A DNA stretch of 64,000 bases from Anas platyrhynchos. Lineage: Eukaryota. The translations under genes and the position numbers were made by a program. Location of the stretch: contig NC_092617.1 of the NCBI RefSeq assembly GCF_047663525.1, positions 5,511,550 through 5,575,549 of the forward strand, read 5' to 3'. Numbering within the stretch: position 1 is the stretch's first letter; every line of letters begins with the position of its first letter. Positions 3,561 through 25,309 of the stretch are shown here, piece after piece. The notes beneath the pieces were generated by a model. The model saw only the letters and a program-made list of their open reading frames with translations. It did no database searches and had not been told where the DNA came from.

Positions 3561-3655
3561 TCACGTGGTCATATAACCGCCCCATAACCGCCCCGTAACC
3601 ACCCCGTAACCACCCCGTAAGGACCGACCGACCCCATATAGAAAAGAATGACGTC

Positions 3656-3661
3656 ATTTAT
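3656..3661 (-). terminator. APEX1: Candidate poly(A) signal for APEX1 (AATAAA on the minus strand)
   Basis: TTTATT on the + strand inside the unique island 3560-3760. No AATAAA or ATTAAA lies closer to the APEX1 stop at 4709. This implies a ~1 kb 3'UTR that contains satellite sequence. Confidence 0.3.
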
Positions 3662-3759
3662 TGCCATTTTGGGGGGGTTTTCAGACATTTTCGGGTCGGC
3701 GTTGAACCCAACTCAAGGCGCAAACCCAATGGAAGGACCTAACGGGGTCGTTATGGGGC

Positions 3760-4700: not shown

Positions 4701-4708
4701 TGGGGCCG

Positions 4709-5223
4709 TTATATGGCCAGGAACATCTCGACGGGGCAGTGGTCGCTCCCCATCACCTTATTGCGGATCTTACTATCGCACAGCGCCCCCTCCAGGCGTC
4801 GCGACAGGAGGCAATAATCCAACCTCCACCCCACGTTGCGCCCCCGCGCGCCCCCCAAATAGGTCCAAAAAGTGTAGGCGTGGGGCACGGCCGGGTAAAG
4901 GTGCCGAAAAGTATCCAAAAACCCCAACCCCAAAAGCTCCCCGAAACCTTCCCGTTCCTCGTCGGTGAAGCCGGGCGATTTTCGGTTGGCCCGCGGGTGC
5001 CGCAGGTCGATTTCGGCGTGGGCCACGTTGAGGTCGCCGCAGACGGCCACCGGTTTTCGGGCGTCCAAATTGGCCAAAAAGGAGCGGAAGGCGCGGTCCC
5101 AGCGTTGCCGGTAGGGCAAGCGCACCAAGCCCCGGCCCGAATTGGGGACGTAGGCGGCCACCACGTAGAGGGCCGGGAATTCGGCCGTCACCACCCGGCC
5201 TTCCGAGTCGTGCTCGGGGTCAC
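4709..5223 (-). CDS. APEX1: APEX1 last coding exon: the endonuclease/exonuclease/phosphatase fold from [16 protein letters not shown] through CPVEMFLAI*
   Basis: Minus-strand acceptor cccccag|GT at 5224-5226. Translation ...[53 protein letters not shown]...YTFWTY...[10 protein letters not shown]...[13 protein letters not shown] is collinear with human APEX1 residues ~145-318. The catalytic D210/N212/D283/D308/H309 equivalents are present. TAA at 4709-4711. Confidence 0.88.
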
Positions 5224-6660
5224 CTGGGGGGGAGAGAGTGGGGGGTGGCTACCGGGGGGCGACCGGTGGCTACCAAAGGGTTTGGGGTCAACTGGTAGAA
5301 ACTGGAAGGTTTTGGGGTCAACTGGTGGCTACCAAATGGTTTTGGGGTCAATGGTGGCCATTGGAAAGTCTTGGGGTCAATTGGGCAACCAAGGGTCTAC
5401 TGGTGGCTACCAAAGGGTTTTGGGGTAAATGGTGGCCATTGGAAGGTCTTGGGGTCAATAGTGGTGGTTTGGGGTCTACTGGTGGCTACCAAATGGTTTT
5501 GGGGTCAATGGGGCAACCAAGGGTCTACTGGTGGCCATTGAAGGGTTTTGGGGTCAACTGGTGGCTACCAAATGGTTTTGGGGTCAATAAAGGCTATTGA
5601 AGGGTTTTGGGGTCATCTGAAGGGTTTTGGGGTCAATAAAGGCTATTGAAGGGTTTTGGGGTCAACTGGTGGCCACCAAATGGTTTTAGGGTCAATGGGG
5701 CAACCAGGGGTCTACTGGTGGCTATCAAAGGGTTTTGGGGTCAATGGTGGCCATTGAAGGGTTTTAGGGTCAATGGGGCAACCAGGGCTCTACTGGTGGC
5801 TACCAAAAGTTTTTGGGGTCATCCGAAGGGTTTTAGGGTCAATGGTGGCCATCGAAGGGTTTTGGGGTCAATGGGGCAACCAAGGGTCTACTGGTGGCCA
5901 TTGAAGGGTTTTGGGGTCAACTGGTGGCTACCAAATGGTTTTGGGGTCAATAAAGGCTATTGAAGGGTTTTGGGGTCATCTGAAGGGTTTTGGGGTCAAT
6001 AAAGGCTATTGAAGGGTTTTGGGGTCAACTGGTGGCCACCAAATGGTTTTAGGGTCAATGGGGCAACCAGGGGTCTACTGGTGGCTATCAAAGGGTTTTG
6101 GGGTCAATGGTGGCCATTGAAGGGTTTTAGGGTCAATGGGGCAACCAGGGCTCTACTGGTGGCTACCAAAAGTTTTTGGGGTCATCCGAAGGGTTTTAGG
6201 GTCAATGGTGGCCATCGAAGGGTTTTGGGGTCAACTGGTGGCTACCAAAGGGTTTTGGGGTCAATGGTGGCCATTGAAAGGTTTTGGGGTCAATGGGGCA
6301 ACCAAGGGTCTACTGGTGGCTACCAAAGGGTTTTGGGGTCAATAAAGGCTATTGAAGGGTTTTGGGGTCAATGGGGCAACCAAGGGTCTACTGGTGGCTA
6401 CCAAAGGGTTTGGGGTCAATGGTGGCCATTGAAAGGTTTTGGGGTCAATGGGGCAACCAGGGGTCTACTGGTGGCCATCAAAGGGTTTTGGGGTCATCTG
6501 AAGGGTTTTGGGGTCAATAAAGGCTATTGAAGGGTTTTGGGGTCAACTGGTGGCCACCAAAGGGTTTTGGGGTCAATGGTGGCCATTGAAGGGTTTTGGG
6601 GTCAATGGGGCAACCAGGGCTCTACTGGTGGCCACCAAAGGGTCTTGGGGGCAACTGGTG

Positions 6661-6835
6661 GCCAGGAAGGAGCGGAAGGCGCGGTCCCAGCGTTGCCGGT
6701 AGGGCAAGCGCACCAAGCCCCGGCCCGAATTGGGGACGTAGGCGGCCACCACGTAGAGGGCCGGGAATTCGGCCGTCACCACCCGGCCTTCCGAGTCGTG
6801 CTCGGGGTCACCTGGGGGGGAGAGAGTGGGTGGTG
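6661..6835 (-). pseudogene. Duplicated fragment of the APEX1 last exon (acceptor plus first ~135 nt), copy 1 inside the satellite array
   Basis: Near-identical to 5086-5240, including cacctggggggg (the rc of the acceptor cccccaggtg). The ORF track gives [41 protein letters not shown] and then diverges. Confidence 0.85.
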
Positions 6836-7464
6836 GCTAGTGGGGGGCGACCGGTGGCTACCAAAAGGTTTGGGGTCAATTGGTAGCAACTGGAAGGTTT
6901 TAGGGTCTACTGGTGGCTACCAAATGGTTTTGGGGTCAATGGTGGCCATTGGAAGGTCTTGGGGTCAATGGGGCAACCAGGGGTCTACTGGTGGCTACCA
7001 AAAGGTTTTGGGGTCAACCGAAGTGTTTTAGGGTCAATGGTGGCCATCGAAGGGTTTTGGGGTCAACTGGTGGCCACCAAATGGTTTTAGGGTCAATGGG
7101 GCAACCAGGGGTCTACTGGTGGCTATCAAAGGGTTTTGGGGTCAATGGTGGCCATTGAAGGGTTTTGGGGTCAATGGGGCAACCAAGAGTCTACTGGTGG
7201 CCATCGAAGGGTTTTGGGGTCAACTGGTGGGTACCAAAGGGTTTTGGGGTCAATAAAGGCTATTGAAGGGTTTTGGGGGCAATGGGGCAACCAAGGGTCT
7301 ACTGGTGGCTACCAAAGGGTTTTGGGGTCATCGGAAGGGTTTTGGGGTCAATAAAGGCTATTGAAGGGTTTTGGGGTCAATGGTGGCCACCAAAGGGTTT
7401 TGGGGTCAATGGGGCAACCAAGGGTCTACTGGTGGCTACCAAAGGGTTCTGGGGGCAACTGGTG

Positions 7465-7625
7465 GCCAGGAAGGAGCGGAAGGCGCGGTCCCAGCGTTGC
7501 CGGTAGGGCAAGCGCACCAAGCCCCGGCCCGAATTGGGGACGTAGGCGGCCACCACGTAGAGGGCCGGGAATTCGGCCGTCACCACCCGGCCTTCCGAGT
7601 CGTGCTCGGGGTCACCTGGGGGGAA
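7465..7625 (-). pseudogene. Duplicated APEX1 last-exon fragment, copy 2
   Basis: Same ~170-bp segment as copy 1, ORF 7377..7586 (-). Confidence 0.85.
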
Positions 7626-8344
7626 AAGGGGTCAGAGGTGGCTACCAGGGGTTGATGGGTGGCTACCAGAGGGTTTGGGGTCAATGGTGGCCATTGAAGG
7701 GTTTTGGGGTCTACTGGTGGCTACCAAAGGGTTTTGGGGTCAATGGTGGCCATTGAAGGGTTTTGGGGTCATCTGAAGGGTTTTGGGGTCAATGGTGGCT
7801 ACCAAAGGGTTTTGGGGTCATCCAAAGCGTTTTGGGGTCAATAAAGGCTATTGAAGGGTTTTGGGATCAATGGGGCAACCAAGGGTCTACTGGTGGCCAC
7901 CAAAGGGTTTTGGGGTCAATGGTGGCCATTGAAGGGTTTTGGGGTCAATAGTGGTGGTTTGGGGTCTACTGGTGGCTACCAAATAGTTTCGGGGTCAATG
8001 GGGCAACCAAGGGTCTACTGGTGGCCATCGAAGGGTTTTGGGGTCAACTGGTGGCTACCAAAGGGTTTTGGGGTCAATGGTGGTGGTTTGGGGTCAATAA
8101 AGGCTATTGAAGGGTTTTGGGGTCAATGGTGGCTACCAAAGGGTTTTGGGGTCAATGGGGCAACCAAGAGTCTACTGGTGGCTACCAAAGGGTTTTGGGG
8201 TCAATGGTAGCCATCGAAGGGTTTTGGGGTCAACTGGTGGCTACCAAAGTGTTTTGGGGTCAATGGTGGCCATTGAAGGGTTTTGGGGTCAATGGGGCAA
8301 CCAGGGGTCTACTGGTGGCCACCAAAGGGTTCTGGGGGCAACTG

Positions 8345-8515
8345 GTGGCCAGGAAGGAGCGGAAGGCGCGGTCCCAGCGTTGCCGGTAGGGCAAGCGCAC
8401 CAAGCCCCGGCCCGAATTGGGGACGTAGGCGGCCACCACGTAGAGGGCCGGGAATTCGGCCGTCACCACCCGGCCTTCCGAGTCGTGCTCGGGGTCACCT
8501 GGGGGGGAGAGTGGG
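8345..8515 (-). pseudogene. Duplicated APEX1 last-exon fragment, copy 3
   Basis: Same ~170-bp segment as copy 1, ORF 8260..8469 (-). Confidence 0.85.
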
Positions 8516-9959
8516 GGTGGCTACTAGGGGGCGACCGGTGGCTACCAAAAGGTTTGGGGTCAATTGGTAGCAACTGGAAGGTTTTAGGGTCTACTGGTGG
8601 CTACCAAATGGTTTTGGGGTCAATGGTGGCCATTGGAAGGTCTTGGGGTCAATGGGGCAACCAAGAGTCTACTGGTGGCTACCAAAAGGTTTTGGGGTCA
8701 ACCGAAGGGTTTTAGGGTCAATGGTGGCCATTGAAGGGTTTTGGGGTCAACTGGTGGCTACCAAAGGGTTTTGGGGTCAATGGTGGTGGTTTGGGGTCAA
8801 TAAAGGCTATTGAAGGGTTTTGGGGTCAATGGTGGCTACCAAATAGTTTCGGGGTCATTGGGGCAACCAAGGGTCTACTGGTGGCTACCAAAGGGTTTTG
8901 GGGTCAATGGTGGCCATTGAAGGGTTTTGGGGTCAATAGTGGTGGTTTGGGGTCTACTGGTGGCTACCAAATAGTTTCGGGGTCAATGGGGCAACCAAGG
9001 GTCTACTGGTGGCTACCAAAGGGTTTTGGGGTCAATGGTGGCTACCAAATGGTTTTGGGGTCATCTGAAGGGTTTTGGGGTCAATAAAGGCTATTGAAGG
9101 GTTTTGGGGTCAATGGTGGCCACCAAAGAGTTTTGGGGTCAATGGGGCAACCAAGGGTCTACTGGTGGCCATTGAAGGGTTTTGGGGTCAAGTGGTGGCT
9201 ACCAAAGGGTTTTGGGGTCAATGGTGGTGGTTTGGGGTCAATAAAGGCTATTGAAGGGTTTTGGGGTCAATGGGGCAACCAGGGATCTAATGGTGGCTAC
9301 CAAAGGGTTTTGGGGTCATCGGAAGGGTTTTGGGGTCAATGGTGGCCATTGAAGGGTTTTGGGGTCAACTGGTGGCCACCAAAGGGTTTTGGGGTCAATG
9401 GGGCAACCAAGGGTCTACTGGTGGCTACCAAAGGGTTTTGGGGTCAAGGGTGGCTACCAAATGGTTTTGGGGTCATCGGAAGGGTTTTGGGGTCAATGGT
9501 GGCAATTGAAGGGTTTTGAGGTCTACTGGTGGCTACCAAAGGGTTTTGGGGTCATCGGAAGGGTTTTGGGGTCAATGGTGGCAATTGAAGGGTTTTGAGG
9601 TCTACTGGTGGCTACCAAATGGTTTTGGGGTCATCGGAAGGGTTTTGGGGTCAATGGTGGCAATTGAAGGGTTTTGAGGTCTACTGGTGGCTACCAAAGG
9701 GTTTTGGGGTCAATAAAGGCTATTGAAGGGTTTTGGAGTCAATGGGGCAACCAAGAGTCTACTGGTGGCTACCAAAGGGTTTTGGGGTCAATTGGTGGCT
9801 ACCAAAGGGTTTTGGGGTCAATAAAGGCTATTGAAGGGTTTTGGGGGCAATGGGGCAACCAGGGGTCTACTGGTGGCTACCAAAGGGTTTTGGGGTCATC
9901 CGAAGGGTTTTGGGGTCAATGATGGTAGTTTGGGGTCAACAGGTGGCCACTGAAGGGTT

Positions 9960-11260
9960 TTGGGGTCCCCTACAAGATATTTATGGGGTCGGGGGGTCAC
10001 CTGGTGATTTTGGGGTAGATTTTGGGTCAATTTAGCTCCAATTATGAAGGTTCTAGGTCCACCAACGTACATTTTGAACCCCGGGGAGATCTTTGGGATT
10101 TTGGGGCCGTTTTTTGGGATTTTGGGGTGGGTTTTGGGATCCCCTACTAGATATTTATGGGGTTTTGGGGTCACCTGGTGGTTTTGGGGTAGATTTTGGG
10201 TCAATTTAGCTCCAATTATGAAGGTTCTAGGTCCACCAATGTACATTTTGAACCCCTGGGAGACTTTGGGATTTTGGGGTCGTTTTTTGGGGTTATGGGG
10301 TCATTTTTGGGGTCCCCTACAAGATATTTATGGGGTCGAGGGGTCACCTGGTGATTTTGGGGTGCATTTTGGGTCAATTTAGCTCCAATTATGAAGGTTC
10401 TAGGTCCACCAACGTACGTTTTGAACCCCTGGGAGACTTTGGGATTTTGGGGCCTTTTTTTGGGATTTTGGGGTGGGCTTTTCGGGTTATGGGGTCGGCT
10501 TTTGGGGTCCCCTACAAGATATTTATGGGGTCGAGATGTCCCCTGGTGGTTTGGGGTAGATTTTGGGTCAATTTAGCTCCAATTGTGAAGGTTCTAGGTC
10601 CACCAACGTCTGTTTTGAACCCCAGGGAGTTACGGGGTCGTTTTTTGGGATTTTGGGGTCATTTTTGGGGGTTATGGGGTCATTTTTGGGGTCTCCTACA
10701 AGATATTTATGGGGTTTTGGGGTCACCTGGTGATTTTGGGGTAGATTTTGGGTCAATTTAGCTCCAATTATGAAGGTTCTAGGTCCACCAACGTATGTTT
10801 TGAACCCCTGGGAGACTTTGGGATTTTGGGGCCGTTTTTTGGGATTTTGGGGTCGTTTTTTGGGATTATGGGGTCGGCTTTTGGCATCCCCTACAAGATA
10901 TTTATGGGGTCGGGGGGGTCTGCTTGTAGTTTTGGGTCCATTTTGGGTCAATTTAGCTCCAATTATAAAGGTTCTAGGTCCACCAATGTACGTTTTGAAC
11001 CCCGGGGAATTTTGGGGCCGTTTTTTGGGATTTTGGGGTGGGGTTTTGGGGTTATGGGGTCGGTTTTTGGGATCCCCTACAAGATACTTATGGGGTCGAG
11101 GTGTCCCCTGGTGGTTTCGGGGTAGATTTTGGGTCAATTTAGCTCCAATTATGAAGGTTCTAGGTCCACCAACGTACGTTTTGAACCCCTGGGAGACTTT
11201 GGGATTTTGGGGCCGTTTTTGGGGATTTTGGGGTCGTTTTGGGGGATTTTGGGGTCATTT
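9960..11260. repeat. Tandem repeat with a ~178-bp unit, 7 copies (…TTTGGGTCAATTTAGCTCCAATTATGAAGGTTCTAGGTCCACCAACGTACATTTTGAACCCC…)
   Basis: Units start near 10020, 10200, 10380, 10560, 10740, 10960 and 11130. The unit is longer and more complex than its neighbours. It could derive from an unrecognised interspersed element. Confidence 0.8.
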
Positions 11261-11272
11261 TTGGGGTCTCAC

Positions 11273-11465
11273 CGATGCCGTAGGTGACGCTGAGGGGCTC
11301 TTGGCGGGCCAGCAGCCCCACCCCGCTGTAGCCCGGGCGCCCCTCGGGGCTGGCCCAAAATTGGTGGGGGAGCCCCGAAAGCGCCCGAATTTCGGGGGGC
11401 ACCGCGGGGGCCGCGCATTTGGTCTCCTGCAGGCACAGCACGTCCGGGGCCTCCTCCTGCACCCA
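11273..11465 (-). CDS. APEX1: APEX1 middle coding exon ([17 protein letters not shown]…SVTYGIG)
   Basis: Minus-strand acceptor ggggccag|TGG and donor ATCG|GTGAGA. The 193 nt enter in phase 0 and leave in phase 1, which matches the next exon. Aligns with human [65 protein letters not shown]. The catalytic E96 equivalent (LQETK) is present. Confidence 0.88.
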
Positions 11466-12244
11466 CTGGCCCCAAAAAAGCCCGAATTTAACCCAAAATG
11501 GTCCGGGGGGGGAACCCAAAAGAAGACAGGCAGAGACAGTCCAGACCCAACCCCAAAAATTGCCCCAAAATGTCCCAAATCCTAGAAATAACCCAAATCC
11601 TATAAAAACCCCAAATCCTGTAAATATCCCAAATCCCATAAATCCCCCAAAATCCCATAAATAAATCCCAAATCCCCCCAAATCCCATAAATCGTCCCAA
11701 ATCCCATAAATCCCAATCCCATAAACCACCCAAAACCCTATAAATCACCCCAAATCCCATAAATCGCCCCAAATCCCATAAATTGCCCCAAATCCCATAA
11801 ATTCCAACCCCATAAACCCCCCAAAACCCTATAAATAACCCCCAATTTCCCCAAATCCCATAAATTGCCCCAAATCCCCCAAATTCCAATCCCATAAATC
11901 CCCCAAAACCCTAAAAATCCCCCCCAATTTCCCCAAATCCCATAAATCGCCCCAAATCCCATAAATCACCCCAAATCCCATAAATTCCAATCCCATAAAT
12001 CCCCCAAATCCCATAAATCACCCCCAATTCCCCAAATCCCATAAATTGCCCCAAATCCCCCAAATTCCAATCCCATAAATCCCCCAAAACCCTAAAAATC
12101 ACCCCCAAGTTCCCCCAAATCCCATAAATCCCCCAAATCCCATAAATTCCAATCCCATAAATCCCCTAAAACCCCATAAATCGCCCCAAATCCCCAAAAT
12201 CCCAATCCCCTAAATCCCCCAAAACCCTACAAATCCCCCCCAAA

Positions 12245-12420
12245 TCCCACATCCAACACTTCCGGGGCCTCCTCCTGCACCCACTGGCCCCAAAAACGCC
12301 CGAAATTAACCCAAAATGGTCCGGGGGGGGAACCCGGAAAAAGACGGATAGAGGTTGTCCAGAAACAATCCCAAAAATCGCCCCAAAATGTCCCAAATCC
12401 TAGAAATGGCCCAAATCCTA
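12245..12420 (-). pseudogene. Duplicated APEX1 middle-exon 5' edge (acceptor, ~31 nt of exon WVQEEAPDV, ~150 nt of upstream intron), copy 1 of 6
   Basis: cccacatccaacacttccggggcctcctcctgcacccactggccccaaaaacgcccgaa matches the original at 11430-11500. Minus ORFs end …WVQEEAPEVLDVGFGGDL. Confidence 0.8.
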
Positions 12421-12954
12421 TAAATATCCCAAATCCTATAAAAATCCCAAATCCCATAAATATCCCAAATCCTATAAATACCCCAAAATCCCATAAATAA
12501 ACCCCAAAACCCCCGAAATCCCCGAAATCCCGCAAATCCCATAAATTCCAACCCCATAAATCCCCCAAAACCCTAAAAATCCCCCCCAAATCCCATAAAT
12601 CCCCCAAAATCCCATAAATTCCAATCCCATAAACCCCCCAAAACCCCATAAATAAACCCCAAATCCCCCCAAAACCCAGAAATCCCCCAAATCCCATAAA
12701 TTCCAATCCCATAAATCCCCCAAAACCCTATAAATCCCCCCCAAATCCCATAAATCCCCCAAAATCCCATAAATAAACCCCAAATCCCATAAATCGCCCC
12801 AAATCCCATAAATTGCCCCAAATCCCCCAAATTCCAATCCCATAAATCCCCCAAAAAAACATAAATAAACCCCAAATCCCCCCAAAACCCATAAATCACC
12901 CCAAATCCCCAAAATCCCAATCCCATAAATCCCCCAAAACCCTATAAATCCCCC

Positions 12955-13140
12955 CCAAATCCCACATCCAGCACGTCCGGGGCCTCCTCCTGCACCCACT
13001 GGCCCCAAAAACGCCCGAATTTAACCCAAAATGGTCGGGGGGGAACACCCGGAAAAAGACGGATAGAGGTTGTCCAGAAACAATCCCAAAAATTGCCCCG
13101 AAATGTCCCAAATCCTAGAAATAACCCAAATCCTATAAAA
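12955..13140 (-). pseudogene. Duplicated APEX1 middle-exon 5' edge, copy 2
   Basis: ORF 12942..13190 (-) ends [18 protein letters not shown]. Confidence 0.8.
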
Positions 13141-13624
13141 ACCCTAAATCCTATAAATATCCCAAATCCCATAAATACCTCAAATCCCATAAATACCCTA
13201 AAACCTCATAAATACCCCAAAATCCCATAAAGAAACCCCAAACCCCCCCAATTTCCCCAAATCCCAGAAATCCCGCAAATCCCATAAATTCCAATCCCAT
13301 AAATCCCCCAAAACCCTAAAAATCCCCCCCAAATCCCATAAATCCCCCCAAATCCCATAAATTGCCCCAAATCCCCCAAATTCCAATCCCATAAATCCCC
13401 CAAAACCCTAAAAATCCCCCCCAATTTCCCCAAATCCTATAAATCACCCCAAATCCCATAAATCGCCCCAAATCCCATAAATTGCCCCAAATCCCATAAA
13501 TTCCAATCCCATAAATCCCCAAAAACCCCCTAAATAAACCCCAAATCCCCCCAAAACCCATAAATCGCCCCAAATCCCATAAATCCCAATCCCATAAATT
13601 CCCCAAAACCCTATAAATCCCCCC

Positions 13625-13800
13625 CAAATCCCACATCCAGCACGTCCGGGGCCTCCTCCTGCACCCACTGGCCCCAAAAACGCCCGAATTTAACCCAAAA
13701 TGGTCAGGGGGGAACACCCGGAAAAAGACGGACAGAGGTTGTCCAGAAACAATCCCAAAAATTGCCCCAAAATGTCCCAAATCCTAGAAATAACCCAAAT
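13625..13800 (-). pseudogene. Duplicated APEX1 middle-exon 5' edge, copy 3
   Basis: Sequence cacgtccggggcctcctcctgcacccactggcc at ~13640. Confidence 0.75.
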
Positions 13801-14139
13801 CCTATAAAAACCCCAAAACCCTATAAATCCCCCAAATCCCATAAATAAACCCCAAATACCCCCAAATCCCATAAATCGCCCCAAATCCCCCAAATTCCAA
13901 TCCCATAAACCCCCCAAAACCCTAAAAATCCCCCCAAATCCCATAAATACCCCAAAATCCTATAAATCACCCCCAAATCCCATAAATTCCCCCAAATCCC
14001 CCAAATTCCAATCCCATAAATCCCCCAAAAAAACATAAATAAACCCCAAATCCCCCCAAAACCCATAAATCACCCCAAATCCCCAAAATCCCAATCCCAT
14101 AAACCCCCCAAAACCCTACAAATCCCCCCCAAATCCCAC

Positions 14140-14300
14140 ATCCAGCACGTCCGGGGCCTCCTCCTGCACCCACTGGCCCCAAAAACGCCCGAAATTAACC
14201 CAAAATGGTCGGGGGGGAACACCCGGAAAAAGACGGATAGAGGTTGTCCAGAAACAATCCCAAAAATTGCCCCAAAATGTCCCAAATCCTAGAAATAACC
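14140..14300 (-). pseudogene. Duplicated APEX1 middle-exon 5' edge, copy 4
   Basis: ORF 14116..14583 (-) ends [18 protein letters not shown]. Confidence 0.8.
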
Positions 14301-14754
14301 CAAATCCTATAAAAACCCCAAATCCTATAAATATCCCAAATCCCATAAATACCCCAAAATCCCATAAATAAACCCCAAATCCCATAAGTTGCCCCAAATC
14401 CCATAAATTCCAACCCCATAAACCCCCCAAAACCCTATAAATAACCCCCAATTTCCCCAAATCCCATAAATTGCCCCAAATCCCCCAAATTCCAATCCCA
14501 TAAATCCCCCAAAACCCTAAAAATCCCCCCCAATTCCCCCAAATCCCATAAATCACCCCAAATCCCATAAATTCCAATCCCATAAATCCCCCAAAACCCT
14601 AAAAATCCCCCCAAATCCCATAAATCGCCCCAAATCCCATAAATTGCCCCAAATCCCCCAAATTCCAATCCCATAAATCCCCCAAAACCCTAAAAATCCC
14701 CCCCAATTTCCCCAAATCCCATAAACCCCCCCAAACCCTATAAATCCCCCCCAA

Positions 14755-14930
14755 ATCCCACATCCAGCACGTCCGGGGCCTCCTCCTGCACCCACTGGCC
14801 CCAAAAACGCCCGAAATTAACCCAAAATGGTCCGGGGGGAACACCCGGAAAAAGACGGATAGAGGTTGTCCAGAAACAATCCCAAAAATTGCCCCGAAAT
14901 GTCCCAAATCCTAGAAATGGCCCAAATCCT
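14755..14930 (-). pseudogene. Duplicated APEX1 middle-exon 5' edge, copy 5
   Basis: ORF 14738..15517 (-) ends [18 protein letters not shown]. Confidence 0.8.
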
Positions 14931-15469
14931 ATAAAAACCCTAAATCCCATAAATGTCCCAAATCCCATAAATACCCCAAAATCACATAAATACCCCAAAA
15001 TCCCATAAATAAACCCCAAATCCCCCCAAATCCCATAAATCCCAGAAATTCCAATCCCATAAATCCCCCAAAACCCTATAAATCCCCCACAAATCCCATA
15101 AATACCCCAAAATCCCATAAATAAACCCCAAATCCCATAAATCACCCCAAATCCCATAAATCGCCCCAAATCCCCCAAATTCCAATCCCATAAATCCCCA
15201 AAAACCCCATAAATAAACCCCAAATCCCATAAATCCCATAAATCGCCCCAAATCCCATAAATTCCAATCCCATAAATCCCCAAAAACCCTAAAAATCCCC
15301 CCCAATTTCCCCAAATCCCATAAATCACCCCAAATCCACCCCAAAATCCCATAAATAAACCCCAAATCCCATAAATAAACCCCAATTCCCCCAAATCCCA
15401 TAAATCGCCCCAAATCCCCCAAATTCCAATCCCATAAACCCCCCAAAACCCTATAAATCCCCCCCAAAT

Positions 15470-15650
15470 CCCACATCCAGCACGTCCGGGGCCTCCTCCT
15501 GCACCCACTGGCCCCAAAAACGCCCGAATTTAACCCAAAATGGTCGGGGGGGAACACCCGGAAAAAGACGGATAGAGGTTGTCCAGAAACAATCCCAAAA
15601 ATTGCCCCGAAATGTCCCAAATCCTAGAAATGGCCCAAATCCTATAAAAA
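15470..15650 (-). pseudogene. Duplicated APEX1 middle-exon 5' edge, copy 6
   Basis: ORF 15451..15942 (-) ends [18 protein letters not shown]. Confidence 0.8.
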
Positions 15651-16439
15651 CCCTAAATCCTATAAATATCCCAAATCCCATAAATCCCCCAAAATCCCAT
15701 AAATAAACCCCAAATCCCATAAATCGCCCCAAATCCCATAAATCGCCCCAAATCCCATAAATTCCCCCAAATCCCCAAAACCCATAAACCCCCAAAGCCC
15801 CCAAATTCCCCAAATCCTCCCAAATTCCCTCAAAATCCCCCAAACCCCCAAAACCCCATAAATTCCCCAAAACCCCAAAACCCCATAAATTCCCCAAAAC
15901 CCCATAAATTACCCCAAACCCACAAAACCCCCCAAAAAACATAAATTACCCCAAAATCCCCAAAACCCCATAAATAACCCTAAAATCCTCAAAACCCCAT
16001 AAACCCCCAAATCCCCTAAAACCCCCAAAACCTATAAATTCCCATAAACCCCCAAAAAAACATAAATTCCCCCCAAACCCCCAAAACCCCCAAAACCCCA
16101 TAAATTACCCCAAAATCCCCAAAACCCCATAAACCCCCCAAATTCCATAAACCCCCAAACCCCATAAATTCCCCCAAACCCCAAAAACCCCATAAAACCC
16201 CTAAATCCCCCAAAACCCCAAACTTCCCCCAAAATCTCCAAAACGCCCTAAATCCCCCAAAACCCCAAAAACCCCATAAATTCCCCCAAACCCCAAAAAC
16301 CCCATAAACCCCCCAAATCCCCTAAACCCCCAAAACCCCCAAAACCCCATAAATTCCCTCAAACCCCAGAATCCCCATAATTGTCCCAAAACCCCCAAAA
16401 CCCCCAAAACCCCCTAAATCCCCCAAAACCCCAAAATCC

Positions 16440-17440
16440 CCCTTTTTCACCCCAAATCCTATAAACCCCATAAATCCCCTAAATCCTTTCCCCCCCCAAA
16501 CCCCCCTCAAACCCTTGAATCCCCCCCCAACCCCCACCCCCCTTAACCCCCCCTTCCCCCCCCAACCCTTCCAATTGTGAAACCGCCCGAATTTGCCCAA
16601 AATCCCCCTTTTTCACCCCAAATCCTATAAACCCCATAAATCCCCTAAATCCCCTAAATCCTTTACCCCCCCCAACCCCCCTTAAACCCCCCAAACCCCC
16701 CAGCCCCCACCCCCCTTAACCCCCAGCTCCCCCCCTTTCCCCCCCAAATCCCAAACCCCCCAAATTTGCCCAAAATCCCCCTTTTTCACCCCAAATCCTA
16801 TAAACCCCAAAATCCCCTAAATCCTTTACCCCCCCCAAACCCCCTTAAACCCCCCTAAACCCCCCCAAAACCCCACCCCCCTTAACCCCCAGCTCCCCCC
16901 CAACCCCTCCAATTGTGAAACCGCCCGAATTTGCCCAAAATCCCCCTTTTTCACCCCAAATCCTATAAACCCCCAAAATCCCCTAAATCCTTTACCCCCC
17001 CCAAACCCCCCTTAAACCCCCTAAACCCCCCCAACCCCCACCCCCCTTAACCCCCAGCTCCCCCCCTTTCCCCCCTGAATCCCAAACCACCCAAATTTGC
17101 CCAAAATCCCCCTTTTTCACCCCAAATCCTATAAACCCCCCAAATCCCCTAAATCCTTTCCCCCCCCAAAAACCCCCTTAAACCCCCTAAACCCCCCCAA
17201 AACCCCACCCCCCTCACTCCTCCCTTCCCCCCCTTTCCCCCCCAGCCCCGAAACCGCCCGAATTTGCCCAAAATCCCCCTTTTTCGCCCCAAATCCTATA
17301 AACCCCAAAATCCCCTAAATCCTTTACCCCCCCCAAACCCCCTTAAACCCCCCTAAACCCCCCAACCCCCACCCCCCTTAACCCCCCCTTCCCCCCCCAA
17401 CCCCTCCAATTGTGAACCCGCCCGAATTTGCCCAAAATCG
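16440..17440. repeat. Tandem repeat with a ~165-170 bp unit, 6 copies, derived from the intron flank next to the APEX1 first-coding-exon donor
   Basis: Each unit carries ccgcccgaatttgcccaaaatccccctttttcaccccaaatcctataaacc. This matches the genuine intron 5' end at 17406-17470 (ccgcccgaatttgcccaaaatcgcggtttttcgccccaaaacctacctgcag), but the GT donor is degenerate in the copies. Confidence 0.8.
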
Positions 17441-17463
17441 CGGTTTTTCGCCCCAAAACCTAC

Positions 17464-17610
17464 CTGCAGCCCCCCCTTTTTGATCCAGGCCCGCAGCCCC
17501 CCCACGTTCCAGGACGCCAGGCGCAGCGACGCCGCCGCCCCCCCCGGGGACAGCGCCCGCACGGGGGGGTCCTCGTAGGGACACGGCGACGGGGGGCGCT
17601 TCGGGGGCAC
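17464..17610 (-). CDS. APEX1: APEX1 first coding exon ([M/V][48 protein letters not shown])
   Basis: Donor CAG|GTAGGT at minus 17464/17463. Aligns to human MPKRGKK…[41 protein letters not shown]. The codon at the conserved Met position is GTG (plus 17608-17610), preceded by tatcccccc-AG, so the 5' boundary and the start codon are unresolved. Confidence 0.7.
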
Positions 17611-18830
17611 TGGGGGGATACTGGGAGTTACTGGGAGGCACTGGGAGGGGACTGGGAGGGGACTGGGATAAACTGGGAGGGGGTTTGGGGAGATTTGGGG
17701 GGGATTTGGGGGATTTTAGGGGGATTTTAGGGGGGATTTAGGGGATTTTGGGGGGTTTTAGGGGACTGGGATGTACTGGGAGGGAACTGGGAGATACTGG
17801 GAGGGGACTGGGAGGGGACTGGGATAGACTGGGATAAACTGGGAGGGACTGGGAGAGGTTTTGGGGGCGTTTTGGGGGGGATTTGGGGGATTTTGGGGGG
17901 TTTTGGGGCACTGGGATGTACTGGGATATACTGGGAGGGGACTGGGATATACTGGGAGTGAACTGGGAGGCACTGGGATAAACTGGGAGGGGACTGGGGG
18001 GCACTGGGATAAACTGGGAGGGGTTTTGGGGGGGGTTTCAGGGGGTTTTGGGGGGGTTTAGGGGGATTTTAGGGGATTTTGGGGGGTTTTAGGGGACTGG
18101 GATGTACTGGGAGGGGACTGGGAGATACTGGGAGGGGACTGGGGTATACTGGGATATACTGGGAGGGACTGGGAGGGGGTTTGGGGGGCGTTTTGGGGGG
18201 GATTTGGGGGATTTTAGGGGGATTTTAGGGGGTTTTGGGGCACTGGGAGGGGACTGGGAGATACTGGGAGGTGACTGGGATATACTGGGAGGAGACTGGG
18301 GTATACTGGGATATACTGGGAGTGAACTGGGAGGGGACTGGGAGGGACTGGGGGGCACTGGGAGGGACTGGGAGGGGACTGGGAGGCACTGGGAGGGACT
18401 GGGAGGGGACTGGGAGGGGACTGGGAGGCACTGGGAGGGGACTGGGAGGGACTGGGAGGCACTGGGAGGGCACTGGGAGGGCACTGGGAGGGGACTGGGA
18501 GGGACTGGGAGGGGACTGGGAGGCACTGGGAGGGACTGGGAGGGACTGGGAGGGACTGGGAGGGGACTGGGAGGCACTGGGAGGGACTGGGAGGGGACTG
18601 GGAGGGACTGGGAGGGGACTGGGAGGCACTGGGAGGGACTGGGAGGAGACTGGGGGGCACTGGGAGGGGACTGGGAGGCACTGGGAGGGGACTGGGAGGG
18701 ACTGGGAGGCACTGGGAGGGACTGGGAGGCACTGGGAGGGGACTGGGAGGCACTGGGAGGGACTGGGAGGCACTGGGAGGGGACTGGGAGGGGACTGGGA
18801 GGGGACTGGGAGGCACTGGGGGGGGGCAGT
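17611..18830. repeat. Satellite with a ~10-11 bp unit GGGACTGGGAG, same family as 1-460
   Basis: gggactgggagg/gggcactgggagg reiterated about 110 times. Long repeat-translation ORFs on both strands (for example the PSP-rich 207-aa minus ORFs). Confidence 0.9.
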
Positions 18831-18839
18831 GGGAGGAGC

Positions 18840-21180
18840 CCCCTCCCAGTGCCCCGTACTGGTTCCTACTGGTCCCTGCTGGTCCCCACCAGTCCCTACT
18901 GGTTTATACTGGTCTATTTATACTGGTCTATACTGGTTTATACTGGTCTATACTGGTTTATACTGGTCTATACCAGTCCCTACCAGCCCATACTGGTCCC
19001 CACTGGTTCCTGCTGGTTTATACTGGTCTACTTATACTGCTTTACACTGGTCTATACTGGTTTATACTGGTCTGTACTGGCCCATACTGGTCCCTACTGG
19101 TCCCCACCAGTCCCTACTGGTTTATACTGGTCTATTTATACTGGTTTATATTGGTTTATACTGGTATATGCTGGTCTGTACTGGTTTATACAGATCTATA
19201 CTGGCCTGTACTGGACCATACTGGCCCATACTGGTCCATAATGGTCCATACTGGTCTATTTATACTGGTCTATACTGGTCTATACTGGTTTATACTGCTC
19301 TATACTGGTTTATATTGGTCTATACCAGTCCGTACTGGTCCATACTGGTCTCCACTGGTCCCTACTGGTCCATAATGGTCTATTTAAACTGGTTTATACT
19401 GGTCTGTACTGGTTTATACTGGTCTATACCAGCCCGTACCGGCCCATACTGGTCTATACTGGTCCCCCCCACCCCATACTGGTCCCTACTGGTCTATAAT
19501 GGTCTATCCTGGTCTATTTATACTGGCTTATACTGGTTTATACTGGTCCATACCTGCCTGTATCAGTCCCTACTGGTCCCTACTGGTTTATACTGGTCTA
19601 TTTATACTGGGGTATACTGGTTTATACTGGCTTATACTGGTCTAAACTGGTCCATACCGGTCCCTACCGGTCCCCACTGCCCCATACTGGTCCCTACTGG
19701 TCCCTACTGGTCTATTTATACTGGTTTATACTAGTCTATACTGGTTTATACTTGTTCATACTGGTCTATACTGGTTTATAGTGGTCTATACCAGCCTGTA
19801 CCGGTCCCTACTGGTCTATACTGGTCTATTTATACTGGCTTATACTGGTATATACTGGTCTGTACTGGTTTATACTGGCTCGTACTGGCCCGTACTGGTC
19901 CCCACTGGTCTATACTGGTCCCTACTGGTCAATACTGGTCCATTTATACTAGTCTATACTGGTTTATACTGGTCTGTACCGGTTTATAGTGATCTATACT
20001 GGCCCGTACTGGCCCATACTGGTCTATACTGGTCCCCCCTGCCCCATACTGGTCCCTACTGGTCCATTTATACTGGTTTATACTGGTCGATACCGGCCCA
20101 TACTGGTCTATTTATACTGGTTTCTACTGGTCCATACTGCTCTATACTGGTTTATACTGGTCGATACCGGCCCGTACCAGTCCCTACTGGTCCATAATGG
20201 TCCATACTGGTCTACTTATACTGGTCTATACTGGTTTATACTGGTTTATACTGTCTTTTACTGCTCTATACTGGTTTATACCGGCCCGTACCGGTCCCTA
20301 CTGGTCCCTACTGGTCTATACTGGTCTACTTATACTGGTTTATACTGGTATATACTAGTCTGTACTGGTTTATACTGGTCTAAACCGGTCCGTACTGGCC
20401 CATACTGGTCCCTACTCATCAATACTGGTTTATATTGGTCTATTTATACTGGTCTATTTATACTGGTTTATACTGGTTTGTACTGGCTTTTAGTGCTCTA
20501 TACTGGTTTATACTGGTTGATACCGGCCCGTACCGGTCCCTACTGGTCCCTACTGTTCCATACTGGTCTACTTATACTGGTTTATACTGGTTTATACTGG
20601 TTTGTACTGGTTTAAAGTGATCTATACTGGCCCGTACTGGTCCATACTGGTTCCTACTGATCCATACTGGTATATACTGGTCTATTTATACTGGTCTATG
20701 CTAGTTTATACTGGTCTATACTGGTCTGTACTGGTTTATACTGGTCTAAACCGGTCTGTACTGGCCCGTACTGGTCCCTACTGGTCCATAGTGGTCCATA
20801 CTGGTCTACTTATACTGGTCTATACTGGTCTATGCTGGTTTATACTGGTCTATACTGGTCTGTACTGGCTTATACTGGTCTAAACCGGTCTGTACTGGCC
20901 CATACTGGTCCCTACTGGTCTACTTATACTGGTTTATACTGGTTTATACTGGTTTATACTGGTCTGTACTGGTTTATACTGGTCTAAACCGGTCTGTACT
21001 GGCCCATACTGGTCCCTACTGATCCATACTGGTCTATAATGGTCTATTCATACTGGTTTATACTGGTCTATACTGGTTTATACTGGTCTATACTGGTTTA
21101 TACTGGTTATACCGGCCCATACCGGTCCCTCCCGCTCCCCCCCGCCCCACACCGGCCCATACTGGTTTATACTGGTTTAT
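18840..21180. repeat. Satellite with a 10-bp unit TACTGGTCTA / TACTGGTTTA, ~2.3 kb
   Basis: Direct reiteration. Shares the ACTGG core with the flanking GGGACTGGGAG satellite. Occasional ~9-bp variants (tatttatactgg). Confidence 0.9.
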
Positions 21181-21575
21181 ACTGGTCCATACTGGTCGCA
21201 CTCACCCTCCTTGTCCCCGCCGTTCTCCTTCCGGGCTCGCTTGGGCATGGCTCCTCGTGGCCCCGCCCCCTGCGCGCCCCGCAGCCAATCAGCGCCCGCC
21301 GCGGGGAGCCCGGAGCCAATCAGCGCCCGCCGCGGGCCGGGCCCGGAGCCAATCAGCGGCGGCCGCGCGCGGGGGGCCCGGAGCGTGGCGCGCGGCGGCG
21401 GCGGCCGGAAGCGGAAGCGAGCGAGGGCCGGAAGCGGAAGCGCCTCAAACCGGAAGGGGAGGAGCTTCGAACCCGGAAGCGGAAGCGGAGAAGCTCCGGA
21501 GGCGGCGGAGGAGGCGGCGGAGCGGCGCGGGAGGCGGCGGTGACGTCAGAAGTGACGTCAGAAGTGACGTCAGCG
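21180..21575. promoter_or_regulatory. Bidirectional CpG-island promoter for OSGEP (+) and APEX1 (-): GC box, three NF-Y CCAAT boxes, ETS (CCGGAAGC) repeats, three tandem CRE (TGACGTCA) sites next to the OSGEP ATG, and a minus-strand splice donor
   Basis: ccccgccccc at 21261. gcagccaatcagcg at 21285, 21316 and 21349. ccggaagcggaagcg repeated at 21405-21490. tgacgtca at 21541, 21553 and 21565. Minus-strand AGG|GTGAGT donor (plus ctcaccct, 21201-21208) facing APEX1. Confidence 0.7.
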
Positions 21576-21690
21576 ATGCCGACGGTGCTGGGGCTGGAGG
21601 GCTCGGCCAACAAGGTGGGGGCGGGGCTGGTGCGCGACGGCCGCGTCCTCAGCAACCGCCGCGCCACCTACGTCACGCCCCCCGGGCACG
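21576..21690 (+). CDS. OSGEP: OSGEP (Kae1/TsaD family, KEOPS t6A tRNA threonylcarbamoyladenosine transferase) exon 1
   Basis: ATG at 21576. [38 protein letters not shown](G), versus human [39 protein letters not shown]. Donor G|GTGAGC, phase 1. Confidence 0.92.
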
Positions 21691-21699
21691 GTGAGCGGA

Positions 21700-22745
21700 A
21701 GTGACGTCACTCGGAACGCCCCCCGTGACGTCACTTCCCCCCCCCCGGTCCCCTCCGTGTGACGTCATTGCTTCAGATCCCCCCCTATAGGCCCGTTAGG
21801 CCTCGCCCCGGTGACGTCACGGACACTTCCTGTGACGTCACGGGGGCCGTGACCCCGCCCCCGTGACCTCTGACCCCGCCCCGTGACCTTTGACCCCTCC
21901 CTGTGACCTTTGACCCCCCCCATCCTGACCCCTGACCCCCTGGGACCCGTCACCCCCCTGTGGCCGATGCCCCCCCCTTGTGACCCCTCCCCCGTGACCT
22001 TTGACCCCAAGTGACCCCGGTGACCCCTGCCCGTGACCTTTGACCCCGCGGTGACCCCTGACCCCCTCCCCATGACCTTTGACCCCCCCATGACCCCCAA
22101 CCCCCCATGACCCACGTGACCAATTCCCCCTTGACCCCTGCCCCCCGTGACCCCTGACCCCTTTGTGACCCCGCCCCCGTGACCTTTGACCCCACCGTGA
22201 CCCCAACCGTGACCCCTGACCCCCCAGTGACCCCTCCCCATGACCTTTGACCCCCCCATGACCCCTAACCCCCCCGTGACCCACGTGACCAATTCCCCCT
22301 TGACCCCTTTCCCCCGTGACCCCTGACCCCTCTGTGACCCCACCCCATGACCTTTGACCCCACCGTGACCCTGAGGGTGACCTTTGACCCCTGGGTGACC
22401 CCTTACCGTGACCTTTGACCCCCCCATGACCCCTAACGCCCCTATGACCCACGTGACCAATTCCCCCCTTGACCCCTGCCCCCCGTGACCCCTGACCCCT
22501 TGTGACCCCACCCCGTGACCTTTGACCCCGCCGTGACCCTGACCGTGACCTTTGACCCCTGGGTGACCTTTGACCCCCCTCCCCATGACCTTTGACCCCC
22601 CCATGCCCCCTAACCCCCCTGTGACCCAATACCCACTTGACCCCTGCCCCCGTGACCCCTGACCCCTCTGTGACCCCACCCCGTGACCTTTGACCCCGCC
22701 GTGACCCTGAGGGTGACCTTTGACCCCTGGGTGACCTTTGACCCC
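21700..22745. repeat. OSGEP intron 1: five CRE sites in the first 150 bp, then a ~13-15 bp C-rich minisatellite (GTGACCCCTGACCCC / GTGACCTTTGACCCC)
   Basis: tgacgtca at about 21703, 21727, 21762, 21814 and 21833. More than 15 copies of TGACCTTTGACCC (the rc GGGTCAAAGGTCA is a perfect DR1 half-site pair). Confidence 0.85.
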
Positions 22746-22749
22746 GCAG

Positions 22750-22869
22750 GCTTCGCCCCCGGCCCCACGGGGCGGCACCACCGGGGGGCGGTGCTGGGGC
22801 TGGTGGCCGACGCCCTGCGGGAGGCCGGGCTCGGGCCCCGCGACATCGACGCCGTCGCCTTCACCCGCG
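22750..22869 (+). CDS. OSGEP: OSGEP exon 2
   Basis: Acceptor accccgcag|G. (G)FAPGPTGRHHRGAVLGLVADALREAGLGPRDIDAVAFTR(G), versus human [41 protein letters not shown]. Donor G|GTCAGT. Confidence 0.9.
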
Positions 22870-22874
22870 GTCAG

Positions 22875-25105
22875 TGGCGTGTGTTTGGCGTGTCCTTAGC
22901 GTGTGCTTAGCATGTGCTTAGCATGTTCTTAGGGTGTGCTTGGTGTGGCCTTAACATGGCCTTAATGTGTCCTTTGTATGTCCTTAGTGTCTCCTTAACG
23001 TGTCCTTAGCATGTCCTTAGCGTGTCCTTGGCATGTGCTTGGTGTGTGCTTGGCGTGTCCTTAGCATGGTCTTAGTGTGTGCTTCATGTGGCCTTGGAAT
23101 GGCTTTAATGTGTCCTTTGTATGTCCTTAGGTTGGCCTTAATCTGTTCTTAGTGTGTGCTTAGTGTGTGCTTAGCATGTCCTTAGCATGTGCTTAGTGTG
23201 TCCTTAGTGTGTGCTTAGCATGTGCTTCATGTGGCCTTGGTGTGGCCTTAATGTGTCCTTTGTATGTCCTTAGATTGGCCTTAATCTGTCCTTAGCGTGT
23301 CCTTAATATGTGCTTAGCGTGTTCTTAGCATGTGCTTAGTGCGTGCTTAGTGTGTGCTTAGCGTGTCCTTGGAGTGTGCTTAGTATGTGCTTAGTATGTT
23401 CTTAGCGTGTGCTTGATGTGTGCTTCGTGTGTCCTTGGTGTGGCCTTAATATGACCTTTGTATGTCCTTAGGTTGTCCTTAATCTGTCCTTAGTGTCTCC
23501 TTAATATGTGCTTAGCGTGTTCTTAGTGTGCCCTTAGTGTGTGCTTGGTGTGTGCTTGGCGTGTGCTTAGCATGTGAATAGCATGTGCTCAGTGTGTCCT
23601 TCATGTGGCCTTAACATGGCCTTAATGTGTCCTTTGTATGTCCTTAGGTTGTCCTTAATCTGTCCATGGTGTCTCCTTAACATGTCCTTAGCATGTCCTT
23701 AGCATGTTCTTAGCGTGTCCTTAGTATGGTCTTAGCATGTGCTTCATGTGGCCTTGGTGTGGCCTTGGTGTGGCCTTAATGTGGCCTTTGTATGTCCTTA
23801 GGTTGGCCTTAATCTGTCCTTAGCATGTCCTTAGTGTGTGCTTAGCGTGTTCTTAGCATGTGCTTGGCGTGTCCTTAGTATGTGCTTAGCATGTGCTTGG
23901 TGTGTGCTTCGTGTGGCCTTGGTGTGGCCTTAATGTGGCCTTTGTATGTCCTTAGGTTGGCCTTAATCTGTCCTTAGCGTGTGCTTAGCATGTCCTTAGC
24001 ATGTCCTTAGCATGTGCTTAGTGTGTCCTTAGTGTGTGCTTGGTGTGTGCTTAGCGTGTGCTTCGTGTGGCCTTGGTGTGGCCTTAATGTGTCCTTTGTA
24101 TGTCCTTAGGTTGGCCTTAATCTGTCCTTAGCGTGTCCTTAGTGTGTGCTTAGCGTGTTCTTAGCATGTGCTTAGTGTGTTCTTAGTGTGTGCTTGGCGT
24201 GTGCTTGGTGTGGCCTTGGTGTGGCCTTAACATGTCCTTAATGTGGCCTTTGTATGTCCTTAACCAGTCCTTAGCGTCTCCTTAACATGTGCTTAGCATG
24301 TCCTTAGCGTGTGCTTAGTGTGTGCTTGGTGTGTGCTTCATGTGGCCTTGGTGTGGCCTTAATGTGTCCTTTCTATGTCCTTAGGTTGGCCTTAATCAGT
24401 CCATGGTGTCTCCTTAATGTGTCCTTAGCATGTCCTTAGCGTGTTCTTAGTGTGTCTTTAGAGTGTGCTTAGTATGTTCTTAGCATGTGCTTGGTGTGTC
24501 CTTGGTGTGGCCTTAACATGTCCTTTGTATGTCCTTAGGTTTTCCTTATTTTGTCCTTAGTGTGTCCTAAGTGTGTACTTAGCGTGTCCTTAGCGTGTCC
24601 TTATCATGTGCTTGGCATGTTCTTAGTGTGTGCTTGGTGTGTGCTTGGTGTGTGCTTCGTGTGGCCTTGGTGTGTCCTTAATGTGGCCTTTGTATGTCCT
24701 TAGTGTCTCCTTAACATGTCCTTAGCATGTTCTTAGCATGTGCTTGGCATGTTCTTGGCATGTGCTTAGCATGTGTTTCATGTGGCCTTGGTGTGGCCTT
24801 AACATGTCCTTAGTATGGCCTTGGTGTGGCCTTAACCTGGCCTTAACATGTCCTTTGCATGTCCTTATGTTGGCCTTAATCTGTCCTTAGCGTGTCCTTA
24901 GTGTGTGCTTAGCGTGTTCTTAGAATGACCTTAGTGTGTCCTTAGTATGTTCTTAGCATGTGCTTGGCATGTGCTTGGCGTGTGCTTCATGTGGCCTTGG
25001 CGTGGCCTTAATGTGTCCTTTGTATGTCCTTAGGGTGTCCTTAATCTGTCCTTAGCATGTCCTTAATATGTGCTTAGCGTGTTCTTAGCGTGTTCTTAGC
25101 GTGTC
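22875..25105. repeat. OSGEP intron 2: ~10-11 bp GTGTCCTTAG/GTGTGCTTAG minisatellite organised in ~160-180 bp higher-order units
   Basis: catgtggccttggtgtggccttaatgtgtcctttgtatgtccttaggttggccttaatctgtccttag recurs about 13 times. The same short motif fills the 95-bp intron 4 (26359-26453). Confidence 0.9.
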
Positions 25106-25123
25106 GTCCCCCCCCCCCCGCAG

Positions 25124-25299
25124 GCCCCGGCATGGGGGCGCCGCTGGCGGTGGTGGCGGTGGTGGCGCGGACGCTGGCGCAGCTCTGGGACCGGCCCCTG
25201 CTGGGGGTCAACCACTGCGTGGGGCACATCGAGATGGGGCGCCTGCTGGCCCGCGCCCGCGACCCCCTCGTGCTCTACGTCAGCGGCGGCAACACGCAG
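25124..25299 (+). CDS. OSGEP: OSGEP exon 3 (metal-binding HxxGH…EMG motif)
   Basis: Acceptor cccccccccccgcag|[59 protein letters not shown]. Donor CAG|GTAGGC. Confidence 0.92.
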
Positions 25300-25309
25300 G
25301 TAGGCCCCC

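Follow-up and report, generated by a model that had tools for sequence, protein, structure and literature searches.

Copies of the APEX1 exon 3 acceptor edge inside an intronic satellite of the mallard as an instance of exon stuttering

APEX1 is an essential housekeeping gene of base-excision repair, and in the mallard (Anas platyrhynchos) its second coding intron harbors six additional copies of the 3' splice site by which this intron ends. The question raised by this locus is whether these decoys compete with the genuine acceptor or whether they are a tolerated product of repeat turnover. The locus is contained in a stretch of 64,000 nucleotides (nt) of assembly GCF_047663525.1 (contig NC_092617.1, positions 5,511,550 to 5,575,549 of the forward strand), hereafter referred to as the window, and the gene is located on the minus strand; coordinates refer to the window unless a related species is named. 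As judged from its sequence, the array is an instance of exon stuttering, a phenomenon described for chicken genes, with which it agrees in every feature that could be tested, in a new species and a new gene. We consider it probable (about 85%) that the modules arose as a side effect of the instability of local repeats to which avian dot-chromosome genes are subject, known as sequence or exon stuttering, and that they persist as functionless, tolerated decoys.

A tblastn search with human APE1 yielded three exon-sized matches on the minus strand of the window, together with six short extra matches of 10 residues and three incomplete copies of the last exon. After splicing and translation, the APEX1 exons are 100% identical to the mallard protein XP_071885831.1 (298 amino acids, from a 6.33-Mb record), and the identification of the gene in a preliminary description of this DNA thus holds. 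That description named the host intron intron 1; however, it is the second of three introns of the coding sequence, with exon 1 at 21248-21206 and exon 2 at 17609-17464. The four-exon structure and the direct joining of exon 2 to exon 3 are confirmed by Logan cDNA contigs of another duck species (L003-L005, about 95% identical), which inform on exon structure only and are uninformative on decoy use in the mallard. According to these contigs, exon 1 also holds the 5' untranslated region (UTR). The host intron and its flanking exons are given below; in splice-site motifs, here and later, a slash marks the splice junction.

11273-11465, minus strand: genuine APEX1 coding exon 3, 193 nt, ending in YGIG, located by tblastn with human APE1 and the duck protein, by sequence reading and by related-duck cDNA; acceptor AG at 11467-11466, donor GT at 11272-11271
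11466-17463, minus strand: APEX1 intron 2, 5,998 nt, with three repeat domains
17464-17609, minus strand: APEX1 coding exon 2, located by tblastn with the duck protein and by alignment of related-duck cDNA; donor CAG/GTAGGT

A BLASTN search with the acceptor region of exon 3 (query 11260-11700) detected exactly six further copies, which share 83-89% identity over 264-277 nt. The corresponding decoy modules are:

12254-12428, minus strand: module c1, nearest to the real exon; exon nt 1-30 at 12283-12254 with 2 substitutions, AG at 12285-12284
12969-13143, minus strand: module c2; exon nt 1-30 at 12998-12969 (100%), AG at 13000-12999
13638-13812, minus strand: module c3; exon nt 1-30 at 13667-13638 (100%), AG at 13669-13668
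14143-14317, minus strand: module c4; exon nt 1-30 at 14172-14143 (100%), AG at 14174-14173
14765-14939, minus strand: module c5; exon nt 1-30 at 14794-14765 (100%), AG at 14796-14795
15478-15652, minus strand: module c6; exon nt 1-30 at 15507-15478 (100%), AG at 15509-15508

The low ends of the six copies (12254, 12969, 13638, 14143, 14765 and 15478) lie 3-14 nt from the positions given in the preliminary description, which had also rightly placed the copies within the intronic satellite and, in this minus-strand gene, 5' of the genuine acceptor in the transcript. c6 is the first decoy to be transcribed, 1,957 nt past the exon-2 donor. According to the multiple alignment, each module contains around 125 to 150 nt of non-satellite, acceptor-proximal intron, the ggggccAG acceptor and nt 1-30 of exon 3 (TGGGTGCAGGAGGAGGCCCCGGACGTGCTG, 10 residues). 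The start of the exon had been correctly recognized as part of the module; its share, however, is 30 nt (31-32 at most) and not the 31 nt reported. The exon part matches the real exon completely in all modules but c1, the most diverged copy, which retains the original-type TTCCCCCCCCGG. Beyond exon nt 30, all six copies switch at one common point to the GATGTGGGATTTGGGG satellite and read GATGTGGG, whereas the real exon continues with TGCCTGCAG. This switch, read on the plus strand, had been interpreted as a slight divergence in which CACAGCACG has become CCAGCACG; it is, in fact, the exon/satellite breakpoint of a duplication.

In a blastn-short screen of intron 2 with exon 3 nt 1-30, six matches were obtained, five with 60.0 bits and one with 46.1 bits, and the maximum among 20 shuffled versions of the intron was 26.3 bits. 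Chance or low-complexity similarity of the exon parts, including a limitation to C-rich sequence considered in the preliminary description, is excluded by this control. The same approach found no matches for copies of exon 3 in the distal introns of APEX1. A full tandem duplication of the exon, from which a mutually exclusive or alternative exon could derive, was rejected: 30 of the 193 nt are copied, no copy of the donor is present and an in-frame TAG follows at nt 54 of each decoy.

The intron in which the modules are embedded consists of three domains:

11466-15760, minus strand: acceptor-proximal higher-order repeat domain with the decoy array, delimited by Tandem Repeats Finder (TRF) and unit alignments
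about 15760-16440, minus strand: satellite variant domain
16529-17463, minus strand: donor-proximal stutter, six 167-bp repeats

In the acceptor-proximal domain, the copies mark six or seven tandem units of 818, 715, 669, 505, 622 and 713 bp, each of which combines one module with a variable number of 19-bp satellite monomers (sense strand TGGGGGATTTATGGGATTT). The units are 93-96% identical in pairwise comparisons of aligned columns and differ mainly by the gain or loss of monomers. Including its source, the array spans positions 11436 to 15507 (about 4.07 kb), and TRF reports a tandem array with a period of 19, 264 copies and 64% matches at 11577-16486. Intron 2 contains 63 G-quadruplex (G4) motifs on the sense strand and 0 on the antisense strand. 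The donor-proximal units of around 167 bp share 79-93% identity, begin 1 nt inside the intron-2 donor and carry no exon sequence; from its make-up, this repeat is classified as pure intron stuttering.

Sequence stuttering has been described for chicken dot-chromosome genes, which lie in GC-rich euchromatin and whose introns are occupied by imperfect tandem repeats expanded locally (Hron et al. 2026, Genome Biol Evol, PMC12954441). A form of it known from 236 introns of 115 genes is exon stuttering, in which a lateral part of an exon is copied through the intron together with the adjacent splice site; the copied exon part measures 20-187 bp (median 36), the copy number is 1-44 (median 4) and the span is 112-23,555 bp (PMC12954441). 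The source lies at most 1 nt from the exon border in more than 90% of the cases, repeat blocks do not extend into the real exon, which remains intact, and stuttering introns show extensive length variation within the species (PMC12954441). Cases were called by a BLASTn-short match of at least 20 nt in the proximal intron with a bit score above the shuffled-intron maximum of 42.1, and the chicken structures were verified by raw nanopore reads (PMC12954441). The mechanism is only speculated on in that study. Introns of the same kind, rich in minisatellites and G4 motifs, are reported in a second preprint for the dot chromosomes of several birds including the Pekin duck.

The duck array corresponds to this description in the features that could be compared. 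All six matches to the proximal intron exceed 42.1 bits, the copies start at exon nt 1 and run through the AG into more than 125 nt of upstream intron, and the 30-nt exon part, the six copies and the span of about 4.07 kb fall within the published ranges. The intron is filled by the 19-bp array, and the coding exons are intact. Moreover, APEX1 adjoins OSGEP, which is listed among the stuttering genes of chicken on dot chromosome 34; APEX1 itself is unlisted in this chicken-only screen (PMC12954441). By synteny with its neighbor OSGEP, duck APEX1 would likewise be located on a dot chromosome. The two cases differ in species and gene and in that the duck copies sit in long higher-order units of 0.5-0.8 kb rather than in short blocks, and the duck case adds that different edges of one intron stutter in sister species (see below). 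In its long units, the array resembles higher-order repeats of satellites such as primate alpha satellite or the chicken CNM repeat (PMC9974502), in which tandem amplification and signs of exchange between units are also found; the contrast between units (93-96%) and monomers (about 64% matches) is alike. Unlike these satellites, however, the duck array is intragenic and euchromatic, comprises six units of variable length (505-818 bp) without a centromeric role, and its units are marked by a unique gene-derived segment and not by the order of monomers.

For the history of the array, the orthologous loci of the pintail Anas acuta (L001) and the goose Anser cygnoides (L002) were compared. Because both loci hold only the genuine exon-3 acceptor, with acceptor decoys absent from either orthologue, this comparison of sequences shows the six-copy array to be specific to the mallard lineage and young, and places its origin after the pintail split. 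This fits the divergence between units (4-7%), which is lower than the divergence of the same intron segment between mallard and pintail (about 11%). Of about 205 aligned columns, 17 separate the original from the copy family; when polarized with the Anas acuta outgroup, 9 of these are derived in the original and 7 in the copies. With these derived states in common, the copies either trace back to a single, already divergent founder or have been homogenized; the common exon/satellite junction together with the seven shared derived substitutions argues for a single origin of all six. Sequence exchange between units is indicated by the four-gamete test, which 10 of 15 pairs of informative sites fail. 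Fixed differences between original and copies number 0/30 in the exon part, 6/55 at -55 to -1 and 10/40 at -95 to -55; a contrast between an exon part held constant by conversion or selection and the intron part was not significant when tested (Fisher p = 0.30).

Intron 2 is 6.0 kb long in the mallard and 3.6 kb in the pintail. The pintail intron, which is devoid of acceptor decoys, contains three copies of the last 52 nt or so of exon 2 with an intact CAG/GTAGGT donor:

L001 12531-12587, 13401-13457 and 14284-14340: pintail copies of the donor edge of exon 2

Opposite edges of the same intron thus stutter in the two species, the acceptor edge in the mallard and the donor edge in the pintail. 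The array had been treated as a one-off in the preliminary description; it is, however, one of several exon-edge and intron-edge stutters in APEX1, as intron 3 carries copies of the first part of exon 4:

4709-5223, minus strand: APEX1 coding exon 4
6667-6811, 7471-7615 and 8354-8498, minus strand: mallard intron 3 copies of exon 4 nt 1-145

In each of these three copies, a strong acceptor (ctctcccccccag/GTGACC) precedes an exon part with 100% identity to exon 4, after which the sequence passes into satellite (...CGCTCCTT/CCTGGCCACCAG). The pintail has two such copies (L001 18628 and 19462), which pass into satellite at the same junction, and the goose has one short exon 4 copy (L002 26688). 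Because the junction is identical in the pintail, the exon 4 stutter is, on the sequence evidence, older than the mallard-pintail split. Across all seven copies of mallard and pintail, the 145-nt exon part does not vary, whereas the flanking intron is scrambled; a trivial reason may be that the latter is a member of a large satellite family and has been overwritten by it.

Further features of the coding exons were observed in the same comparison. Copies of the 3' end of exon 4 (...GSDHCPV..FLAI/LYLAL) are found downstream of the stop codon, three each in pintail and goose, and none was found in the mallard window at positions 1-4708:

L001 21558-21680, 23561-23647 and 24663-24749: pintail copies of the exon 4 3' end
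L002 29253-29327, 30165-30239 and 31146-31220: goose copies of the exon 4 3' end

The goose isoform X3, which lacks 13 residues, corresponds to the use of an acceptor within exon 3 (ctgtgcctgcag/GAGACC, 39 nt in; window about 11427), and the mallard duplication breakpoint at nt 30 lies just upstream of this site. In a comparison of mallard and pintail coding sequences that excludes exon 2, for which the extracted ranges are of different length, 14 differences were counted, every one of which falls within nt 143-500 of exon 4; exons 1 and 3 and the first 142 nt of exon 4 are free of them. The lack of differences in the duplicated first 142 nt of exon 4 has a p value of about 0.01 under uniformity.

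An independent view of the array is provided by an older duck gene model (UniProt A0A493SY61), which begins in a c4-type module fused to a complete exon 3. Its N-terminus consists of translated satellite and intron (MGFGVYLWDFG...FGRFWGQ; compared with window 14143-14394). As this model carries a c4-type module, copy-type modules exist, as far as its sequence tells, in an independent duck data set. The model itself represents a collapsed assembly or a different haplotype, probably the former, and is at most an indirect hint of length variation of this intron within the species.

Decoy or poison exons and pseudo-3' splice sites that act in regulation are conserved and have demonstrated RNA usage, for example in promoting intron retention. 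The duck modules resemble them in that authentic-looking intronic splice signals lie upstream of the real acceptor and their use would lead to a premature stop; however, they are lineage-specific, multi-copy, derived from a real exon and without a copy of the donor. A conserved regulatory decoy was rejected for the array, which is absent in Anas acuta and Anser cygnoides. The modules might nevertheless act as competing 3' splice sites: exon 2 would be joined to a decoy, or the intron retained, and degradation of the premature-stop transcripts would lower or tune APEX1 output. Several properties of the copies speak for this possibility and hence weigh against functionless decoys. The preliminary description had asked whether the branch-point and polypyrimidine signals are retained, which is the case: all six copies keep the ggggccAG acceptor, the branch-point-like motif, the weak pyrimidine tract and the T-run, and the only fixed change within -20 to -1 is a T to G exchange at -14. 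At around -23, c1, c4 and c5 even possess TTAAT, a cleaner branch-point-like motif than the TTAAAT of the original. Among 150 AGs of this C-poor intron, the real site has the highest pyrimidine fraction (0.61) and the decoys tie for second (0.56), which places them among the best acceptor-like sites; their local acceptor signals are hardly inferior to those of the genuine acceptor. In addition, the decoys are transcribed 0.8-4 kb ahead of the real acceptor, and it was noted for chicken that stuttered copies "create potential alternatively spliced transcripts" (PMC12954441). Any use of a decoy would require pairing with the exon-2 donor CAG/GTAGGT, and moderately weak GGG/GTGATT candidate donors 99-535 nt downstream of the decoys could close pseudo-exons. 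However, these best downstream donors reach 5.5 bits, which is below both tested real donors (10.1 bits for exon 2 and 6.9 bits for exon 3), as scored with an approximate position weight matrix, which tempers the comparison. The decoys lack the remaining 163 nt of exon 3 and the real donor, the normal 298-amino acid protein is the only duck APEX1 RefSeq product returned by the search, the absence from pintail and goose does not fit a conserved regulatory device, and strong interference with an essential gene should be selected against. Competition that lowers or tunes APEX1 output therefore appears unlikely, and meaningful use of the decoys, plausible as it is in principle, is judged improbable.

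Regularly spaced acceptors in a 6-kb intron superficially resemble the ratchet points of recursive or stepwise intron removal, a reading that we give hardly any credence. A recursive site has to regenerate a 5' splice site (AG/GT; YnCAG/GTRAGT), whereas the decoy junction is CAG/TGGGTG in all copies, and pintail and goose splice the orthologous intron without any array. Classical recursive splice sites are refuted at this level by the missing GT after the AG. An assembly artefact, in which a false expansion or mis-join would have produced the array or its copy number, has to be considered as well. Satellite-rich and G4-rich regions are notoriously hard to sequence and assemble, the copy number derives from one mallard assembly, and A0A493SY61, with its c4-type module fused to the full exon, reveals that at least one assembly depicts the region differently. 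In contrast to duplicated reads, however, the copies differ by substitutions and unit length and have coherent shared derived states; a c4-type module occurs independently in the older model, analogous structures are present in the pintail and goose assemblies and those of chicken are nanopore-verified (PMC12954441). An artefact is thus highly unlikely. The uncertainty of a copy number counted in such sequence nonetheless weighs against the stuttering interpretation, as does the fact that the pintail comparison is based on one unplaced 33-kb contig and that unequal exchange, replication slippage and gene conversion are all candidate mechanisms, here as in the literature. What favors stuttering with functionless decoys are the common junction and derived states of the copies, the exchange between them, their restriction to the mallard lineage, the agreement with the published ranges, the weak donors and early stop of the decoys, the tandem units within a 264-copy satellite, the other stuttered exon edges of APEX1 and the listed neighbor OSGEP, all of them features of the sequence, and the observation of a normal product, with 100% identity to XP_071885831.1 and the joining of exon 2 to exon 3 in related-duck cDNA. 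We infer, against the quality of the acceptor signals, that the decoys have no function and are mostly ignored by the splicing machinery, because the remaining exon and a good downstream donor are missing.

If the array arose by stuttering, the founding duplication would have broken at nt 30 of exon 3 on one side and within the satellite of the upstream intron on the other. The resulting unit would have comprised the exon edge with its acceptor, some 125-150 nt of unique intron and a stretch of satellite. Homology of the flanking satellite may then have allowed unequal exchange or replication-template switching to produce the six-copy higher-order array, with G4-induced replication stress perhaps as a further promoter of amplification. 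Satellite monomers would have been gained and lost within units and sequence swapped between copies; the real exon 3 is intact. The decoy 3' splice sites would be mostly ignored for the reason given above, and any use of a decoy would run into the stop codon 54 nt in and yield a non-productive transcript, with a predicted product of 81 amino acids from exons 1 and 2 and the decoy read-through.

The remaining features of the locus concern the first exon, the neighboring gene and further satellites:

21206-21248, minus strand: APEX1 coding exon 1, ATG at 21248
21576-33247, plus strand: OSGEP, ATG at 21576, head-to-head with APEX1, introns filled with satellite

The start codons of APEX1 and OSGEP are around 330 bp apart (window 21207-21692), an arrangement that implies a putative shared bidirectional promoter. 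A screen of the OSGEP exons for exon copies gave no matches, and the open reading frames listed for the 33-64 kb part of the window are translated satellites only. Intron 1 contains a 10-bp satellite (CCCTCCCAGT; window 17640-18850, minus strand), which forms a run of near-consensus 3' splice sites with pyrimidine tract and CAG; 67 of the 396 AG sites of this intron have at least 80% pyrimidines upstream, and the genuine exon-2 acceptor is the last of the series. The 3' UTR of the related-duck contigs aligns repeatedly to a 24-bp satellite (GGGTCATTATGGGATGAACTTATA) located shortly after the APEX1 stop codon (window 3736-4677), so that satellite repeats appear to be part of the mature APEX1 mRNA. 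Exon 3 marks a reversal of strand composition (window 5224-17463): the sense strand is G/T-rich in intron 2 and C/A-rich in the satellites of intron 3.

The finding itself is an expected instance of a known phenomenon, and its added value lies in the contrast between mallard and pintail and in a single gene whose stutters form a dated series. The description of exon stuttering dates from 2026, is limited to chicken and does not cover its consequences; duck APEX1 extends it to an essential DNA-repair gene. Turnover is very fast, as amplification took hold of opposite edges of intron 2 in mallard and pintail, which share an older exon 4 stutter with an identical breakpoint. A practical consequence is that stuttered exon edges can mislead gene prediction, as illustrated by A0A493SY61, which starts inside a decoy module. 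The stutters of APEX1 form a datable series of events and, with six intact acceptor decoys in one species and three intact donor decoys in the other, lend themselves to the question of whether stuttering disturbs splicing, which bears on the frequent loss of dot-chromosome genes in birds. It is doubtful that the spliceosome engages the decoys at a measurable rate, which would render APEX1 partly dependent on the suppression of its own stuttered splice sites. If this were true, however, the acceptor decoys of the mallard and the donor decoys of the pintail would constitute a natural experiment on stuttering and splicing fidelity, and stuttering might contribute to the decay of genes on dot chromosomes.

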